Virus record (IMG/VR): IMGVR_UViG_2913177423_000001 | Location: 19,415-83,414 of that record | Length of the DNA: 64,000 bases | Strand: one strand, 5' to 3' | Source: a virus | Taxonomy: Duplodnaviria; Heunggongvirae; Uroviricota; Caudoviricetes | Shown here: piece by piece, positions 18,953 through 35,669 of the stretch | Position numbering within the stretch: position 1 is the first letter of the stretch | Layout of the letters: each line of letters opens with the position of its first letter | Position numbers and translations under genes: made by a program | Notes under the pieces: generated by a model | What the model saw: only the letters and a program-made list of their open reading frames with translations | Database searches by the model: none | Told to the model about the DNA's origin: nothing

Positions 18953-19705
18953 TTAATCAGCCTCCAGTGGCAATAACGCCTTAGCCATTTCATGAATCAG
19001 CATGGCATCAATGACGCCTAGCGTATGGCCCGGCTTAATCTTTAATGCGGCCTCAAGATAGCCTCTTTCCAGAGTGGTTTTTACGCTTTTCCTGGGCGCT
19101 TGTTGGGGACTATCCGGAAGATCCGGATGGTTGCCAGCCTCATAAGCTACCCGCAACCAGTGCATGAATGTTTCCGCAGACACACAACCACAGTCCACAT
19201 CGATTTTCCCGCGTTGCTGTTCCAGCCATTGCTCAAAATCTAACTTGCAAGCCTTACTTTCAAGTTCATCACCATTGAACTCGACTTTCTGCGACGCTAT
19301 GAGAGCGGCTTCGTACTGTTCGCGAGAGACAACTGACTGGTATTCATCGCTATCAAGGTCACGAATTGGAAGCTCAATCTCACGACAAAAATTCCGCCCA
19401 TAGAACTGGTCTTTTTTGTGGTCTGAGCCAAAAGCAAAAGTCGCGCATGGCGCCATTAAATTGACACTGAGTATGTGACAATAACTCATGCCATCAGGCC
19501 ATCCGCCGCACTTAGGCAACTCCTTCACTAATAAGTCGATCAGCTTCATTGTTTTACCATCTTTGCAAGTCGCCAAAGCCATTTGAGCAAGCGCCAATAC
19601 TTCATCTGCCGTATATCCAGCACCGTGACCATACATTTCTATTCGGGAAATAATCTCTGATATACGCTCTTTATTGATTCTGATCATAGTTCTATTTCCT
19701 TGCAT
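18953..19705 (-). CDS. hypothetical protein (about 245 aa)
   Basis: long minus-strand ORF; start may be internal ATG at 19687. Confidence 0.55.
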   Translation of the reverse strand: MQGNRTMIRINKERISEIISRIEMYGHGAGYTADEVLALAQMALATCKDGKTMKLIDLLVKELPKCGGWPDGMSYCHILSVNLMAPCATFAFGSDHKKDQFYGRNFCREIELPIRDLDSDEYQSVVSREQYEAALIASQKVEFNGDELESKACKLDFEQWLEQQRGKIDVDCGCVSAETFMHWLRVAYEAGNHPDLPDSPQQAPRKSVKTTLERGYLEAALKIKPGHTLGVIDAMLIHEMAKALLPLEAD

Positions 19706-28687: not shown

Positions 28688-28711
28688 TGCCCCGGCCTGT
28701 CCGGGGCTTTA
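28688..28711 (+). terminator. intrinsic terminator after ant
   Basis: hairpin GCCCCGGCC-TGT-CCGGGGC plus TTT. Confidence 0.5.
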
Positions 28712-28739
28712 ACTGCTAAATAATCGGATTCTCCGCACG

Positions 28740-29051
28740 ATGAAGAAAATAGATTTCACTTACTCTGCCGCCACAGTCCAGCGACGTTTCAGTCTCATAA
28801 GGGAAGTGGAACTATCAAAAACCGGGTATCAGGTTCTGTTGGATGAAGAGTTATCACTGATGGTAATAGCAGAAAAATTGGCTATGCCGAATGATCGGCA
28901 CAAAGTCATTGCAAGCCTTGACCTGGTAACAAACAGATACTGGGAAGCAGAGGGACCACATGGAGATGGTGTAATACGCGAAATGATTGAACAAGCGACG
29001 CCCCTACGCTATCGGATACGAAATGAAGTCACCATAATTGAAAGGTCTTAA
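28740..29051 (+). CDS. hypothetical protein (103 aa)
   Basis: ATG ORF, no recognised domain. Confidence 0.5.
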   Translation: MKKIDFTYSAATVQRRFSLIREVELSKTGYQVLLDEELSLMVIAEKLAMPNDRHKVIASLDLVTNRYWEAEGPHGDGVIREMIEQATPLRYRIRNEVTIIERS

Positions 29052-29182
29052 CGATAGTCTGCCACGAATAGTAACTTCCACTGCCTTAAGTTATTTAATT
29101 GCATTACAAAGTGTAAATTAGTAATATTAGAGTCTCACACAGCACTATAACTATATGTTTTTTATGTAAAAGGACGATAATT

Positions 29183-29533
29183 TTGGCTACTAAAGTTAAA
29201 CTAGAAAATCCGCAAACTGGCGAGTCAATAACAGGTTTTTATGGCTTTTCCTGGACTACATTCTTGTTTGGCGCTTTTCCAGCTTTGTTCAGGAAAGACT
29301 TTATAACTTTTGTTGGGGTATTCGTTGTGATGCTGATACTGGCATGCCTCACATTCGGAATTGGCCCTTGGATAGCCTCGTTTATCTGGGCGTTCATGTA
29401 CAATAAATATTTCACCGTAAATAAGATAAAACAAGGATTCGTATTTGCTAGTTCTCACACAGAAAATGAGTTAGCCGCCAGCAAACTTGGATTAGCCTTA
29501 AATCAAAACAACTGCAAAACTATTACCGCGTGA
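29183..29533 (+). CDS. small inner-membrane protein (DUF2628-like)
   Basis: two TM segments; motif GFYGFSWTTFLFGAFPALFRK. Confidence 0.5.
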   Translation: MATKVKLENPQTGESITGFYGFSWTTFLFGAFPALFRKDFITFVGVFVVMLILACLTFGIGPWIASFIWAFMYNKYFTVNKIKQGFVFASSHTENELAASKLGLALNQNNCKTITA

Positions 29534-29537
29534 AACC

Positions 29538-29570
29538 AAAAAAGCAGGCTTATTTTAAGCCTGCTTTTTC
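29538..29570. terminator. bidirectional intrinsic terminator
   Basis: hairpin AAAGCAGGCTT-ATTTTA-AGCCTGCTTT with T-runs both strands. Confidence 0.7.
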
Positions 29571-29575
29571 GATTA

Positions 29576-30451
29576 CTAGTCCTGCTGACAATTAAGGAAC
29601 ATAAACGCACGTTTGTCCGTTAAATCAGTAACATAATATTCACGAATACCATTCGGTTTTATGCGGCGAGCATACACAAACTTATGAACTGGCTGGTCGC
29701 TGCCATAACTAACCTCAGTGCGAAATTCATCGACCGTGCTACCATCCTTTTCTGTCTCTTTGCGTATCAGTTTATTGTTCAGATCTGGCTGAGTCTCATC
29801 CATTCCGCTAAATGCATCTTGCCCGGTACTATTACCCCGGTTGCCACGTGGTAAATCCCACGAAAAATAAGTCCCATAGTCTGTAATTACCTGATCCCAC
29901 GCCCCGGTTTCATCCATATAATGACTACGCTTCCCTTGGTATGTTACGTCAACCTTACAGGAAAACGTTGGCGCGCTATTACTTGCAGCTGAGGCCGTTG
30001 AAGATTGTGTAACACTGCCATTGTTGGCATTTCCATAGTTCCAGCCATCATGCAACGCTTTAACCCACAGATTAGTCAGGGATAGCGTAACATCATTCCC
30101 CAACGCCTGGCTGATTCGAAGCCTCTGTATCCGGCGTAACCCATACTCATAGGCTTCATCGTCATTAATCACTCGCCCACGTTGAGCGGCTACCACCCCA
30201 GATTGCCACGCACGATTAATTTCACGAATAAGATACACTTGTGGATCAACGCCGTATCTGTTGTATTCATAGTAAAGGCTCATTGCGCCGTGTTGGCTCT
30301 GGTATTCATTAGCCCATGATATAACCGCGTTTCTTCCATAATCCGCGAGCGCAGAATGACTTGACAGAAGAAGAGCAACGCCAACAGTCTTCAGTAATTT
30401 GAATCGGCACAACTTTTTAATAATACGATTGGGAAATGTTTTTTTGCTCAC
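29576..30451 (-). CDS. secreted protein of unknown function (291 aa, signal peptide)
   Basis: GTG start; basic N-region then TVGVALLLSSHSALA; stand-alone gene between terminator and non-coding DNA. Confidence 0.6.
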   Translation of the reverse strand: MSKKTFPNRIIKKLCRFKLLKTVGVALLLSSHSALADYGRNAVISWANEYQSQHGAMSLYYEYNRYGVDPQVYLIREINRAWQSGVVAAQRGRVINDDEAYEYGLRRIQRLRISQALGNDVTLSLTNLWVKALHDGWNYGNANNGSVTQSSTASAASNSAPTFSCKVDVTYQGKRSHYMDETGAWDQVITDYGTYFSWDLPRGNRGNSTGQDAFSGMDETQPDLNNKLIRKETEKDGSTVDEFRTEVSYGSDQPVHKFVYARRIKPNGIREYYVTDLTDKRAFMFLNCQQD

Positions 30452-30732
30452 TTTTCAACCTTTTGCCACAAATCCAGACCAACTACCTAATAATAATAAC
30501 TAACCACTCTGTTTTTTTGATAAGCACCAAATCGTTTACAAAAAAAATAGCAAATGACTATTGACACTATTCTGGAAATCACAAACTGCACATAATCCAT
30601 CGCGCTAACGGCTCCCGTTGAAGGTTCTTTTGACGATTAACTTTCAGCCGAAGCGCGGTAGGGAGTCATAACGCCAAAGCAGGCCGCCATGTGCGGCCTT
30701 TTTTTGTATCCGTCATCCGTGGAGGAAGGACA

Positions 30733-31386
30733 ATGGAAAAGATCGCAATATTCAGCCTGACCACCAGCAAACCGCAAATGCTCACTGCAATACTGAAAGA
30801 CGGCGCTCTCGTGATTAACGAAGTAAAACCCCTTCCCGCGTCAGCATTGGAACAAAAGCAAAAAATTCCTCCAGCTATAGCAGCCCTGCGGAAAAGCAAA
30901 TTTAAGGTGCTGGTTGACGAAATTACGCCAACGATCTCCGCTGGCACCGGAGCAAGCCAGGTAACACTCAAGACACGTCATGCCGACGGCAGAGCTGCGA
31001 TCATCGTAGGGATGGAAAGATACAGAGAGCTAAAACTCCAGAAGCTATTATCCCTGCCGCAAAATAACAAAGGAGCTTTCGAAATCCCCGACTCCATCGT
31101 TGACACCGAATACAACGGTAACGGAGAAGAAGTCTACCGAGTGAACTGGCAGGATATCAGGCCGGAACATATTCTGATGATCCTGTGTTGCTACGCGACC
31201 GTATACCACAACGTTGCCAGCGCGGATTACGTGGAACAGATGACAGGCACAGTCGAGAAAGAGCACAAAACAGGCATCCTCGCTTCGTTCCTGTCCATTA
31301 TTGGGCATGAAAAGGTTAAAGCAGGCACCTCCCAGCCAAAGTCACTGGCTGGGAAAGAAGTTGATGAAGATACCGTGATACTTTGA
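30733..31386 (+). CDS. hypothetical protein (217 aa)
   Basis: start moved to ATG with GGAGGAAGG RBS. Confidence 0.55.
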   Translation: MEKIAIFSLTTSKPQMLTAILKDGALVINEVKPLPASALEQKQKIPPAIAALRKSKFKVLVDEITPTISAGTGASQVTLKTRHADGRAAIIVGMERYRELKLQKLLSLPQNNKGAFEIPDSIVDTEYNGNGEEVYRVNWQDIRPEHILMILCCYATVYHNVASADYVEQMTGTVEKEHKTGILASFLSIIGHEKVKAGTSQPKSLAGKEVDEDTVIL

Positions 31387-31715
31387 TCACATCAGTAGCT
31401 TTGTTAACTCCCTCAATACCAGGTAGAAGAGTAACAAAAATACTGACGCCAGTATTTGCGTGGTCAATGAAGCGTTCATAAACAGATCAATTAGCATTAT
31501 TAATTCGAAAATAACATCCATGTCATTCGCTCAGTTTAATTTTTAATCTACTGCCAGTAAGTAATGAAGCTGGCCCCGCATAAAGATTAATGAAAGTCAC
31601 TTGTCACCAGTGAGGGGATTTATGAATCACATCTCCCTGAGCTGGTGGCCTGTCTGTTTCTCGCATTTCACACCCTGCATACAGTTTCCCCAGGTTATGA
31701 CTGAGGATTTTTGTT

Positions 31716-32045
31716 ATGGGCTATAGCAGACTCGACGATCGATACATTGAAGACGATATTCTGCGCGCACTGTTCCACCAGGAGATGATTAAACGGGTAT
31801 CGGAATATCACCCGGATAACTTCCAGTACACGATAAAAATTGATGAAGTCTATCGTTCAGACCTGGCTGCCTACCGGGCGTATGGGAACGCAGATTTACG
31901 CTGGGTATTCAGAGTGCTGGTGGGGCATGAATCAGAAATGGAAGAAATGCCCGCCGGGACCACGTTAACTCTCCCTGATGTGGCATGGCTGAGAAACAAG
32001 ATCCGTGATTATGCTGGCGCTGAACCGGAGATAAAAAATGCCTGA
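31716..32045 (+). CDS. hypothetical protein (109 aa); C-terminus weakly resembles LysM-like tail protein X
   Basis: ends ...AGTTLTLPDVAWL; stop overlaps next ORF start. Confidence 0.45.
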   Translation: MGYSRLDDRYIEDDILRALFHQEMIKRVSEYHPDNFQYTIKIDEVYRSDLAAYRAYGNADLRWVFRVLVGHESEMEEMPAGTTLTLPDVAWLRNKIRDYAGAEPEIKNA

Positions 32046-33234
32046 TTTCCTGAAAAACCAGGACGGGCGCTATATCACTGACGGCCTGTCCTCTAAGGAC
32101 TTCACGCGTATATTCGACCTTATCAGGAAAGAACAAACCCGTAAGCGCCGACAAGCTCACCGAACGCTTACACCTGGCAGACTGAGGAACAAATCCGCCG
32201 AAGATATTCTCAAGTTAGGGAAGAAGAAAGGCGGCACGTTCTTTACGCGAGACGATCTGAAAGGTTTCGAAAAGCTACGGAGTAAAACGCGCGAAAAATA
32301 TGACAGCAAGACGGCTGGCATTACATACGCCCAGCTGGTGGCGTCCAGCCAGGCTATCGATATTAAGCGTGCAAATAACGCCGTAGACGACGGTTCCGGT
32401 ATCAAAAGAGCTACGCCCGTATCTCTTCGCCACAACGTGATTAATATCCGCGTAGAAGCATCAGATATATCCGTCCACCAGCATCATATCGTCCGGATAC
32501 GCTTTGAAGAATGGGATCAGATGGTCGATGACATCGCAGAAGACGATAAATCAGCCCTGAAAGTCACTAAATCACTGTGTGCTGGGCGGGTATCTTTCGA
32601 TTGTGACTGTGGTCGTCATCAATACTGGTATCGTTACATCGCCACTGCGGGTAACTTTGCCCTGGCACCGCCAAAAGAATACGCCTATCCAAAAGTTCGC
32701 AACCCGAAGCTGCAAGGCGTCGCCTGTAAACACGTGATCCACTCAATGACGCGGTTACAGTCCGCCAGTTGGCAAATGAGTATTGCTCGTGCGCTACAAA
32801 AGGCTGCAACGCAAATTGCATTTGGTGACGATCGCCGCCGTACAACCAAACACTTCTCAAAAGAAGACGAGAAGGAGTTTAATCGCAATCGTAGCAGTAA
32901 AACGAACGTTGAAGCCGCCAAACGCGAATGGAGGCTCTATCAGAAACGCCAGGCCGCTTTAAGCACAAAACTGGCAAAGGACAACGGCAAGATTGACATG
33001 CTACGTGACCAGCTGACCAGGGCCAGAAAGTTGTCAGACGCACAGAAAAAACGAGCGGCAGCAAAAGAAGCGGCCTTGCAACGCGAGAAACAGAAAAACA
33101 AGGAGCTTCAGCAACGCCTTGCCGATCAGTTCGCACTGAAGAAGCAGGCGTTCATTGATGCGCTTGTCATGGCAGGAACGTCACCTGAGCAAGCTGAAAA
33201 AATGTTTATGGAGTATGTGAAGAAAGGTTCTTAA
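32038..33234 (+). CDS. SWIM-type zinc-finger protein with basic coiled-coil C-terminus
   Basis: CxC-N27-CxH pattern (FDCDCGRHQYW ... ACKHVIH). Confidence 0.55.
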   Translation: MPDFLKNQDGRYITDGLSSKDFTRIFDLIRKEQTRKRRQAHRTLTPGRLRNKSAEDILKLGKKKGGTFFTRDDLKGFEKLRSKTREKYDSKTAGITYAQLVASSQAIDIKRANNAVDDGSGIKRATPVSLRHNVINIRVEASDISVHQHHIVRIRFEEWDQMVDDIAEDDKSALKVTKSLCAGRVSFDCDCGRHQYWYRYIATAGNFALAPPKEYAYPKVRNPKLQGVACKHVIHSMTRLQSASWQMSIARALQKAATQIAFGDDRRRTTKHFSKEDEKEFNRNRSSKTNVEAAKREWRLYQKRQAALSTKLAKDNGKIDMLRDQLTRARKLSDAQKKRAAAKEAALQREKQKNKELQQRLADQFALKKQAFIDALVMAGTSPEQAEKMFMEYVKKGS

Positions 33235-33242
33235 TTTACAAC

Positions 33243-33266
33243 AAAGGCGGTTATCCCGCCTTTTAT
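33243..33266. terminator. bidirectional intrinsic terminator
   Basis: hairpin AAAGGCGG-TTATC-CCGCCTTT plus T-run. Confidence 0.65.
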
Positions 33267-33267
33267 A

Positions 33268-34017
33268 TTACTTGTCCTTTGATGTCGATTGAGACTCATA
33301 TATTGCCTCTACGTCATCTATTAGTTTATTAATACCCCACAATCCAGTGTCTTTATAAAAATCGCTTTCTTCAATTGCTTTTAATAAATCGGCAAAATCT
33401 TCTTGGGTGGAAATTCTTTTCTTTTTTGCTTTATATACATCGACAATTACTTTTATGCCGTGATACAGAGCCACTCTGGCACTCTCAATCTCTCTCTTCT
33501 TCTCTTCAATTGCAGACAATAATTTATATTGATCTTCTGTTTGCTTTTCTAGACTTAAAAGCTTGTTCTCTTTTTGCTTCAGGTTGATCTGCAATTCTTT
33601 TATTCTTGCTCTCTCTTCTAAATCAAACTCATAGTCAATGTATCTGATTCTTGCATAGTTCCTCCCTGTTGCTTTTGATATACACATTGTTATATAAGGC
33701 ATTACCACTGACGCAGTGGTTCCATATATAAATGGCATAACAAAATGAGCCACAAACGGAGATACAACGATGGGACCAATATAAGGAAAGTGATATTTCT
33801 CGCCAACCCATACTATAGACAATGTTGTATATATATCGTACTTTGATTTAAATAAAATAATAATATCCTGCCAGTTAACGACAAAAAAAGAAACCACAAC
33901 ATATGCAAACAACTTATTAAATAACTTGTCTCTTATGGCTTCTTCGATTGTGTTCTTGACTGTGACATTTTCATCTTTATTTTCTAGTGATGAATCTTTG
34001 CTCATATAAACAATCAA
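33268..34017 (-). CDS. AT-rich membrane protein with cytoplasmic coiled-coil domain
   Basis: about 32 percent GC against the element background; 2-3 N-terminal TM helices then charged coiled coil; start may be internal ATG at 34005. Confidence 0.55.
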   Translation of the reverse strand: MIVYMSKDSSLENKDENVTVKNTIEEAIRDKLFNKLFAYVVVSFFVVNWQDIIILFKSKYDIYTTLSIVWVGEKYHFPYIGPIVVSPFVAHFVMPFIYGTTASVVMPYITMCISKATGRNYARIRYIDYEFDLEERARIKELQINLKQKENKLLSLEKQTEDQYKLLSAIEEKKREIESARVALYHGIKVIVDVYKAKKKRISTQEDFADLLKAIEESDFYKDTGLWGINKLIDDVEAIYESQSTSKDK

Positions 34018-34066
34018 ACCTTCTTATCTTTATTTTTGGTAAAGGCGGTCATCCAGACCGCCAAAC

Positions 34067-34426
34067 TCAAACACCAACCAGGCTTTCAAGAGGAATACCA
34101 AACTGGGAATGTAAACGACGAATCATAGGTAACGTCAAATTTCGTGTCCCATTAAGCACTTCGTAAACACGGTTTGACTTACCAATTGCCGGTTCCAGAT
34201 CCTTCACTGTCAGCCCTTGCTGTTCCATACGAAACTTAATGGCTTCAATAGGTGATGGTGGCTCTATTGGGTAATGCTTTTTCTCGTACTCTTCAATGAG
34301 CAGGCACATTACTTCAAAGAAATCGCCTTCCGGTGTGTTCATTTCCGGTTCGTTATCGAACATCGGTTCGACCGCACGCAGTGCGGCCTCATAATCTTGT
34401 TCTGTACGGATAGGTTTAATGTTCAT
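34067..34426 (-). CDS. higA: HigA-family antitoxin (HTH-XRE)
   Basis: 119 aa; C-terminal HTH LTVKDLEPAIGKSNRVYEVLNGTRNLTLPMIRRL; directly downstream of HigB-like ORF. Confidence 0.7.
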   Translation of the reverse strand: MNIKPIRTEQDYEAALRAVEPMFDNEPEMNTPEGDFFEVMCLLIEEYEKKHYPIEPPSPIEAIKFRMEQQGLTVKDLEPAIGKSNRVYEVLNGTRNLTLPMIRRLHSQFGIPLESLVGV

Positions 34427-34429
34427 GAT

Positions 34430-34732
34430 TTACTCCAGTTCTATTGTATCCGCTTCAATGGCATCGTATTCCTTATGTGTTCCAATAAACTTAACGAACA
34501 TCCATCCTCGCTGATAAGCAATTGCGACAATTAACCTGTAATCATTTCCCTTAATATTGAACACCACGCGCCTGTTTTTAAGGATGCTGGCTGTCCGGTA
34601 CTGTTCTTTGATCTCAGCCGGATTTTTCCAGTCAGCCTTTGTTGCTTCATCAACCCATGCCTTTAATGGCTGTTCTGCATCGGGATTCTTCGCCCAGAAA
34701 TCCCTTAGTGTTTTTACCGAAATTATTTTCAT
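34430..34732 (-). CDS. higB: HigB-family toxin (RelE/ParE superfamily)
   Basis: MKIISVKTLRDFW ... RVVFNIKGNDYRLIVAIAY ... GTHKEYDAI; start at ATG with GAAGGA RBS. Confidence 0.7.
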   Translation of the reverse strand: MKIISVKTLRDFWAKNPDAEQPLKAWVDEATKADWKNPAEIKEQYRTASILKNRRVVFNIKGNDYRLIVAIAYQRGWMFVKFIGTHKEYDAIEADTIELE

Positions 34733-34835
34733 CACAGATTCCTTCTCTCTGAAAGCAGAGTAGTCCCAATATGGGACAATGTAAAGCACTTTAGTCCCAT
34801 GCTGGGATATGAATTGAAATCACAATCTCCAGACA

Positions 34836-35669
34836 ATGCACCTTCGATACCTGATACATCGACCTTTGAGGATGCTTATGGGCCGTTTTGACGAATGGTT
34901 TGCTGACGATGCAAACCTGGTAAGTAAGGAGTCAGAACATGACAGCACGCAGAGAGAAACGCCAGCGCCGATTGAAGAGGATGCAGGAGGCGCGCCGGAA
35001 CATGGCAATACCGGATCGGATTCATTCAGCATTCTGGAAGAGCAATCCACCGCCGAAGCTGATCGCCATGATAATTTCCCTGGTAGCGGCGGTAGTTTTA
35101 CTCCGGACACTGGAGAACCTGATATAGCCATTCTGCCATCTTCCCTGGCAGGCAGAGAACCAACTCCACAGCTAAAAACACGCTATAACGGGCATAAAGC
35201 CTTTAACGACCAGATCCGTGCTGACTGGATGTTAATTATTGAATCCAGCCCAGACGCGTTCCAGGCGCTCTTATACCGACCTGATGTCGGCACATATGGC
35301 GTGGTCAGCGACGAAACTGGAGAAGAGTCATTCACTGAACTGGATAACAACCAGCGCGAACTGACTTACCAGGAACCTGAAATCGTTTATGTGCTGGATA
35401 ACCCTGATGGGCGTGACTCTTTCCATGCTCTTGACTCAGACGGTGAGCAGGACGGTCTGACTGATGACGTCCTTATTCTGCGAATCGCCGCAAATAACGT
35501 ACCCGTCGGCTCAATTCTTGAGTGGAATGAAGAGATGGCAAATGGTGTAGCTCGCCGCTGGTGGTATGTACACCGTATTTTCAGTTACGGCACACAGCAT
35601 GTCGGCTCGCTTTACTACTGCATACCCGCAAGAAACTTTGATACGACTCAGAATGGGGTGATCGAGTAA
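34836..35669 (+). CDS. hypothetical acidic protein (start uncertain)
   Basis: long ORF, Asp/Glu-rich; first gene of rightward cluster. Confidence 0.5.
   Translation: MHLRYLIHRPLRMLMGRFDEWFADDANLVSKESEHDSTQRETPAPIEEDAGGAPEHGNTGSDSFSILEEQSTAEADRHDNFPGSGGSFTPDTGEPDIAILPSSLAGREPTPQLKTRYNGHKAFNDQIRADWMLIIESSPDAFQALLYRPDVGTYGVVSDETGEESFTELDNNQRELTYQEPEIVYVLDNPDGRDSFHALDSDGEQDGLTDDVLILRIAANNVPVGSILEWNEEMANGVARRWWYVHRIFSYGTQHVGSLYYCIPARNFDTTQNGVIE

Follow-up and report, generated by a model that had tools for sequence, protein, structure and literature searches.

Phages and prophages encode inner-membrane exclusion or abortive-infection proteins, e.g., RexB of lambda and Imm of T4, and in the relBEF operon of E. 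coli K-12 the toxin-antitoxin (TA) genes relB and relE are followed by hokD/relF, whose product is membrane-active. In PD-Lambda-2, toxicity lies with the B protein, which carries a C-terminal peptidase, and defence depends on a P4-antitoxin-like C protein (PMC9519451). Antitoxins of the HigA type usually autoregulate through paired palindromic operators (PMC11980606), and an earlier study ascribed post-segregational killing to the higBA pair of D6-like phage-plasmids (PMC6799933). D6-like phage-plasmids carry almost no recognisable defence systems (bioRxiv 10.1101/2025.09.12.675607), and most of the unknown genes tested from the defence hotspots of P4 satellites proved to be defensive (PMC13586616). 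Here we analyse a stretch of 64,000 nucleotides (nt; positions 19,415 to 83,414) of the Caudoviricetes record IMGVR_UViG_2913177423_000001, hereafter the window. It is a D6-like plasmid prophage (i.e., a phage-plasmid) of the P1 family, to which Escherichia phage D6 is 91% identical across the shared parts of a 2.4-kb query. Our subject is a locus of three genes within its tail region: a higB-higA pair and an adjoining gene for a predicted membrane protein (hereafter the membrane gene).

We consider that this locus is an accessory (moron) island of two stacked modules, an addiction TA pair and a lysogen-expressed membrane conflict determinant, and we give this reading a probability of roughly 0.5. 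All three genes lie on the minus strand, and the tail genes on either side lie on the plus strand (Table 1). In P1 the start of gene 7 follows gene 25 after only 3 nt and, as the two genes are contiguous there, the three genes of the window are an antisense insertion in the late tail operon (26-25/7-24-6-5) of the D6 lineage. The region is matched by 125 non-mobilizable plasmids of ~90 kb from E. coli, Salmonella and Shigella, most of which have this 25/7 slot filled, with varying content. The original prediction, made from the letters of the window, had described a toxin-first HigB-like/HigA-like pair in a P1-like setting, next to an AT-rich gene (about 32% GC, i.e., guanine plus cytosine) for a protein with 2-3 transmembrane (TM) helices and a cytoplasmic coiled coil, bounded by a terminator at 33243-33266. 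These descriptive points are borne out, the setting being more exactly D6-like and the terminator being the hairpin listed in Table 1.

Table 1. Coordinates of the features of the locus and of its borders in the window (aa, amino acids; ORF, open reading frame; HTH, helix-turn-helix)
Feature	Position	Strand	Description
Homologue of P1 tail gene 25, left slot border	32038..33234	+	97.7% identical to D6 orf74, 56.7% to P1 gp25; phrog_1722 tail protein
Bidirectional intrinsic terminator	33243..33263	both	8-bp hairpin, T-run on each strand; folding z -4.5 and -3.8
Membrane gene	33268..34005	-	245 aa from ATG; TTG-extended ORF to 34017 = 249 aa
Weakened terminator/attenuator hairpin	34044..34062	-	GGCGGTC-tggat-GACCGCC, directly past the higA stop, then only TTT; fold -17 kcal/mol, z -1.9
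higA	34067..34426	-	119 aa; C-terminal HTH_3; start 3 nt past the higB stop
higB	34430..34732	-	100 aa from ATG; Shine-Dalgarno AGAAGGA; RelE-superfamily toxin, E. coli K-12 HigB (YgjN) type
higBA promoter/operator region (predicted)	34752..34807	-	two 25-nt direct repeats 31 bp apart, each with a TCCCA-N3-TGGGA palindrome
Homologue of P1 tail gene 7, right slot border	34836..35669	+	D6 orf69 'similar to P1 gene 7'; phrog_1906

The membrane gene shows the strong allelic replacement typical of arms-race genes. Allelic HYPERDIVERSITY across the D6-like loci yields membrane proteins that are 97, 79, 70, 66, 42, 38 or 37% identical to the window copy, and the gene 25 protein is 96-99% identical across these same loci. 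The drop in nucleotide identity is limited to the membrane gene, reaching from ~100 nt before its ATG to the terminator, and the allele of one locus (L017; L numbers denote the loci compared) is a mosaic. Synonymous sites are saturated between allele classes, and the ratio of nonsynonymous to synonymous substitution rates (dN/dS) ranges from 0.13 to 0.4 in both halves of the protein. Positive selection on the gene was not found, as dN/dS stays below 0.5 in all reliable comparisons and the single value above 1 involves the truncated copy of L019. Given these low ratios and the TM residues that are invariant in 41 distant homologues, the protein has been under sustained purifying selection. Judging from these comparisons, the alleles are old, kept under purifying selection and exchanged by recombination, which fits neither recent in-situ diversification nor gene decay.

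A second lineage of P1-related phage-plasmids (L032-L034, L043, L044, L008) has a slot of its own past a bplB homologue, with flanks that are ~68% identical at the nucleotide level to P1 genes 21, 22, pmgG and bplB; it is filled with TacA-TacT or HigB-HigA and then by very different alleles of the membrane family. Within this lineage, TacA (97%), TacT (99%) and the flanking proteins (98-99%) are near-identical and the membrane proteins are only 29% identical. Such wildly different versions in otherwise near-identical phages, with alleles that diverge by as much as 60-70% on backbones of 97-100% identity, make the membrane gene a plausible candidate for phage exclusion or defence.

The membrane protein has two hydrophobic segments (approximately residues 31-53 and 76-108); beyond them it continues as a long helix or coiled coil. 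In TM1, N44 is invariant and W45 nearly so, within a largely conserved NWQ...KSK stretch in which S54 is also nearly invariant; in TM2, P91 and P103 are invariant and G95 nearly invariant. The structure model (AlphaFold2, AF2; mean predicted local distance difference test score, pLDDT, 75.5) consists of one helix that extends from TM2 as far as residue 194 and of a two-helix C-terminal head, with a periplasmic loop of ~20 residues that is predicted to form a beta-hairpin. The model is consistent with a short cytoplasmic N-terminus, two TM helices and a cytoplasmic coiled-coil stalk with a small head, and one architecture is common to the whole family in our alignments (A2, with 22 homologues, and A4).

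The protein is a full-length member of phrog_8191 (E 4e-116, profile positions 1-241 of 242), a family annotated as of unknown function; all 22 members of A2 match phrog_8191, 17 match phrog_4780 and 16 match phrog_13369. A word-indexed search of 5.8 billion proteins returned 18 clusters of relatives and an exhaustive profile search of 1.84 billion cluster representatives 73 family members; scans of species-representative genomes gave none and then two, and scans of metagenomes and viral sequences a handful more loci. The protein has no Pfam, NCBIfam or PADLOC family, with no PADLOC match at E <= 1, and PADLOC-DB 2.0 holds no family for it or for its homologues P0029 and P0033. Likewise, no Pfam-A family is common to the 22 homologues, and the family scan left only a sub-threshold match to DUF6947 (E 0.005) and scattered coiled-coil families; PDB searches by sequence and by fold gave only generic coiled-coil matches. 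The family is uncharacterised, no description having been found in the literature searched.

The slot itself shows how loosely the TA pair and the membrane gene are bound to each other. Five arrangements were found in D6-like elements: HigB-HigA with the membrane gene (the window and L002), HigB-HigA only (L003), a HigB-like toxin of PF05015 with its own HigA, an orphan HigA of the window type and the membrane gene (D6 and L004), the same with the orphan HigA cut to a fragment (L005 and L018), and a second HigB/HigA type with the membrane gene (L026). The same membrane allele (96-97% identical) stands behind two TA types in L002 and L004. In the environmental D6-like elements L047, L048 and L051, the membrane gene occupies the 25/7 slot alone, without a TA pair; L047/L050, L048/L049 and L051 come from rhizosphere metagenome and viral contigs and represent D6-like phage-plasmids that are more distantly related. 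The membrane family also extends to accessory positions elsewhere. In P2-like prophages lone members occupy the V/S and D/ogr intervals, in each case antisense to the late genes. The slot between gene V (spike) and gene S (tail) is that of L011-L014 (4001-4651), where the membrane-family gene adjoins a gene of 247 aa with only a weak HNH match, and the one between D and ogr is that of L052 (1311-2027). Further lone members occur in chromosomal islands of defence-type content, by a KAP/STAND NTPase, by a BrxR-like HTH-WYL-WCX regulator or behind a DUF4145 gene at a distance of 12 nt, and others are found on non-phage IncF plasmids.

Two modules stacked in one slot, each separable from the other, are the best-supported interpretation of these variants. 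The three genes had been taken for one cassette, which does not agree with higBA pairs lacking the membrane gene (L003 and ~150 chromosomes), membrane genes lacking a TA pair, and one allele behind two TA types. Nor can the compositional break be read as recent acquisition, as had been proposed, since the slot is filled in most of the 125 plasmids and the membrane alleles are old, with saturated synonymous sites. The 25/7 slot is a long-standing polymorphic slot with allele swapping, and no recent event is seen.

The break in composition is nonetheless clear. The membrane gene has a GC content of 33.3% (32.1% at third codon positions, GC3), higA of 44.4%, higB of 41.6%, and the flanking tail genes of 49.5-50.5%. 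Relative to 738-bp windows over the 64 kb (mean 47.1%, standard deviation 3.2%), the locus is not uniform and no stretch of the 64 kb is lower in GC than the membrane gene, only 0.24% of windows being at or below 33.5%. With its absence from P1, its deviant GC (33% vs 47%), its own terminator and its orientation antisense to genes 25/7, the gene has the marks of a moron. The terminator is common to the membrane gene on the minus strand and the convergent gene 25 homologue on the plus strand. The second, weakened hairpin stands between the TA pair and the membrane gene, and comparable hairpins usually follow the TA pair in other loci, ahead of the membrane gene. In L003, which has no membrane gene, TTTGTTGT comes after the higA stem, which is the sole terminator there, and the junction falls exactly in the CCGCCTTT motif common to both hairpins that bracket the membrane gene elsewhere. 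Given that the L003 junction lies within this shared CCGCCTTT, the membrane gene has been inserted or deleted precisely between two similar hairpins. At this junction (L003 1925-1985, compared with window 33225-33300 and 34000-34075), the stem of the higA hairpin is joined to the sequence past the terminator of the membrane gene.

The TA module is, as far as homology can tell, a canonical HigBA pair of the E. coli K-12 type, ordinary and already known. HigB matches the Pfam family HigB_toxin PF09907 of the RelE/BECR fold (E 3e-34, 117 bits vs a cut-off of 27) and phrog_5734, and it aligns with the HigB of PDB 5YCL/5IFG (E 1e-7) with conservation of the C-terminal THKEYD motif; by homology it would be a ribosome-dependent mRNA interferase. 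HigA has its HTH_3 domain at residues 63-115 (Pfam) and matches the HigA of 5YCL/5IFG (E 2e-8). The order is toxin-first, and the Shine-Dalgarno sequence of higA lies within the 3' end of higB with a spacer of 3 nt, an arrangement in which higA is translationally coupled to higB. A weak -35 TTTACA / -10 TACTCT, as read from the sequence, overlaps the proximal repeat of the upstream region, whose repeats are predicted operators in the usual layout of an autoregulated TA promoter.

Across the D6-like loci HigA is 93-100% identical. A relative of higBA with ~80% nucleotide identity is present in about 150 E. coli chromosomes, where the membrane gene is absent. In one of these (L041, 2999-3664) it lies immediately downstream of the antiterminator gene Q of a lambdoid prophage, a site which is the position of Stx (Shiga toxin) and other morons. 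Another relative, on the 39-kb plasmid pNE92-2 (L042, 2994-3670; ~73% nucleotide identity), adjoins a TenpIN type III toxin and is likewise without a membrane gene. In D6 (L001, MF356679, 5257-6384), L004, L005 and L018, the PF05015 HigB-like toxin has its own HigA and is accompanied by an orphan HigA that is 98% identical to that of the window and lacks a PF09907 toxin; in some plasmids the orphan is shortened to residues 1-65 or 41-119. It looks like an antitoxin decaying after replacement of its toxin, and its presence explains the two 'HigA' annotations in D6.

Genes of the membrane family follow a type II TA pair immediately on its 3' side, in the same orientation and after short spacers, in at least five contexts, two of which are ordinary IncF-type plasmids, and the TA families upstream include PF09907 HigB/HTH (three versions), PF05015 HigB-like/HigA, TacA/TacT and RelB/ParE-RelE. 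This recurrence could reflect read-through from TA promoters, stacking of accessory genes in hot spots, or true functional coupling. If coupling were the cause, the three genes would form one tripartite system in which the membrane protein is a sensor or effector working with whichever type II TA pair lies upstream, e.g., by toxin release upon entry of phage DNA or by expression upon derepression of the TA promoter, with a logic like that of the toxin-antitoxin-chaperone (TAC) systems or PD-Lambda-2. Besides the recurrent position behind different TA families, a cassette that is 99/99/91% identical (HigB103-HTH139-membrane) between a D6-like phage-plasmid and Klebsiella IncFIB plasmids has, given this identity, moved as a unit, which speaks for such a system, as does the lack of a convincing separate promoter between higA and the membrane gene. 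SecB-like chaperones provide a precedent for a third component common to several TA families (PMC11980606). Yet the TA pair and the membrane gene each occur alone, one membrane allele is found behind two TA types, the higA of L005 and L018 has decayed to fragments next to an intact membrane gene, and a terminator-like hairpin separates the modules. Moreover, the folds of the antitoxins (Xre-HTH, TacA, RelB) are unrelated and no extension is common to them, and adjacency could be a hot-spot effect, as TA pairs make up a large share of the accessory genes in such slots. By our estimate, the adjacency is striking relative to a genome-wide background and not significant if TA pairs are ~1/4 of slot accessory genes; since the proper background, i.e., the accessory genes of such slots, could not be sampled, we claim no enrichment. 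Because both partners occur alone and the alleles reassort freely with TA types, we regard real coupling as unlikely. In its most general form, the two-TM coiled-coil family would be a generic, hypervariable membrane partner of type II TA pairs, an event at the inner membrane (entry of phage or plasmid DNA) leading to activation or expression of the upstream toxin, or the reverse. We hold this to be quite improbable; if true, it would constitute a new class of tripartite, membrane-linked TA defence on phage-plasmids and plasmids.

The position of the membrane gene within tail or baseplate clusters, in P1-family as well as P2-like elements, may also suggest that its product serves the life cycle of the phage-plasmid, in lysis timing (holin- or antiholin-like), as a help to the tail or injection, or in partition or membrane anchoring, and lysis regulators also combine two TM helices with a cytoplasmic helical part. 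A role of this kind is very unlikely, as the gene runs antisense to the late operon with terminators at its borders, is missing from P1 and some of the complete D6-like plasmids, is truncated in others and recurs on non-phage IncF plasmids and in chromosomal islands, and its extreme allelic diversity is unexpected for a core morphogenetic or lysis function. The gene might otherwise be a passenger without current benefit, or a host-directed conversion gene (stress or envelope physiology), kept mainly by linkage to the addiction pair and silenced as foreign, AT-rich DNA. Its very low GC and the truncated and insertion sequence (IS)-disrupted copies would agree with this, and neighbouring TA pairs would stabilise any linked gene; it is still a distinctly unlikely explanation, in view of the low dN/dS over both halves, the TM residues invariant in distant homologues, and the retention of the gene without TA pairs in several element types.

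We return to the island of addiction pair and membrane conflict determinant. The membrane gene is read as a conflict gene because it occupies prophage accessory slots, is antisense with its own terminator, is foreign in composition and is deeply polymorphic under purifying selection; as the D6-like phage-plasmids are near-empty of recognisable defence, systems that have so far escaped recognition are plausible. In the first module, as homology would have it, HigA would bind the paired palindromes upstream of higB and neutralise HigB, and upon loss of the plasmid prophage or depletion of HigA the ribosome-dependent RNase HigB would arrest the cell. HigBA would thus yield plasmid addiction, with abortive infection as a possible side benefit. 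In the second module, the membrane gene would be expressed in the lysogen, where transcription either passes the weakened higA hairpin or starts at a weak promoter of the gene itself, and the protein would counter other phages or mobile elements by superinfection exclusion or abortive infection. Its conserved polar TM hairpin (N44, W45, S54; N-W-Q...K-S-K) would be the effector part, acting by pore formation, by membrane perturbation or by a block of the inner-membrane entry route, and specificity of recognition would come from the hypervariable stalk and head in the cytoplasm. Gene structure, modularity, allelic diversity under purifying selection and the accessory or defence-type contexts are observed; that the protein is probably one of exclusion or abortive infection is inferred from its context, as are its topology and its expression in the lysogen.

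Several observations weigh against this proposal. A periplasmic loop of only ~20 residues would be unusual for blockers of DNA injection that act from the outside or the periplasmic side. Expression in the lysogen is putative, the promoter scan upstream of the membrane gene gave none that could be assigned with confidence, and the sole sigma-70-like site lies inside higA, 116 nt before the ATG. Searches of PADLOC, Pfam and the PDB gave no sequence or fold homology to known superinfection exclusion (Sie), abortive infection (Abi) or defence proteins; an abortive-infection or superinfection-exclusion cassette, as the original prediction had it, is a deduction from context that is not supported as written. 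As some copies are truncated or IS-disrupted (L019, L025 and L007), the gene is dispensable; in L007 (5001-6798), which represents many Klebsiella IncFIB/IncHI1B plasmids, IS903B splits the membrane gene behind HigB-HigA, and the gene is intact in NZ_CP069846. Finally, simple independence of the two modules does not explain why the gene recurs behind TA pairs.

The TA pair is routine, and it is the membrane gene that deserves attention, as the representative of an unnamed family that occurs in phages, phage-plasmids and plasmids and is invisible to current defence finders. Clinical E. coli, Shigella and Salmonella commonly carry D6-like phage-plasmids. Should the membrane protein exclude or abort other phages, it would represent a new family of single-gene membrane proteins for defence or exclusion, a kind of function already known, and would explain part of the apparent defence gap of these elements. 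The repeated placement of the family behind unrelated TA pairs also offers a testable clue to possible combinations of TA modules with membrane effectors.

Outside the 25/7 slot, the gene 26 homologue of some D6-like elements is closely preceded by an extra RelE/ParE-HigA pair (L002 1-313; L018 7190-7402; L022 6457-6687), a site that looks like a second variable slot; in the window it holds only a 330-bp spacer (31387-31715) after the mat homologue (30691-31386). A second low-GC stretch of the window (28700-29600, 36-40% GC), without an ORF of 120 aa or more, sits upstream of the simB homologue (29576-30451, minus strand). The window also has three tRNA genes, Arg-tct, Thr-tgt and Met-cat (4398-4474, 4479-4554 and 6027-6102).

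Among described systems, PD-Lambda-2 is similar in being a three-gene operon, and the window HigB matches PD-Lambda-2_A (PDLC03979) at E 1e-41 over 96 of 97 profile positions; HigA matches PD-Lambda-2_B in its N-terminal HigA-like part only (positions 1-119 of 402, E 7e-43). Pfam finds no ImmA/IrrE peptidase domain in the window HigA (119 vs ~400 aa), and in place of the P4-antitoxin-like PD-Lambda-2C the third gene encodes a membrane protein. As both the peptidase domain and component C are missing, the system is not PD-Lambda-2, and this identity was rejected. In the relBEF operon and in TAC systems, as in the locus, a type II TA pair is immediately followed by a third gene, and the TAC chaperone accompanies several TA families as an accessory component (PMC11980606). 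The third gene of the window, however, encodes a two-TM coiled-coil protein of 245 aa that also occurs without TA pairs, neither a Hok peptide of ~50 aa nor a SecB-like chaperone; a TAC-like or Hok-like third gene was rejected for want of such a match in Pfam, NCBIfam or the PDB. Exclusion or abortive-infection proteins such as SieA of P22 (PMC10883804), RexB and Imm have no similarity in sequence or fold to the membrane protein, which is mostly cytoplasmic coiled coil with a tiny periplasmic loop; they resemble it as small to medium-sized inner-membrane products of AT-rich, terminator-bounded morons that are lysogen-expressed, putatively so in the window, non-essential and variable between related phages. 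For the TA pair, the toxin of D6 differs from that of the window as a PF05015 HigB-like protein with its own HigA, the window-type HigA being present there only as an orphan. HigB/HigA of E. coli K-12 (YgjN/YgjM; 5IFG, 5YCL) are distant from the window pair (phmmer E ~1e-7 to 1e-8) and their antitoxin is longer (138 vs 119 aa), but they share with it the toxin-first order, the PF09907 toxin, the C-terminal Xre HTH of the antitoxin and the paired promoter palindromes. The 'higA-higB' addiction modules annotated in phage D6 and pYU39_89 resemble the window pair in being carried by a plasmid prophage, a setting that suits post-segregational killing.

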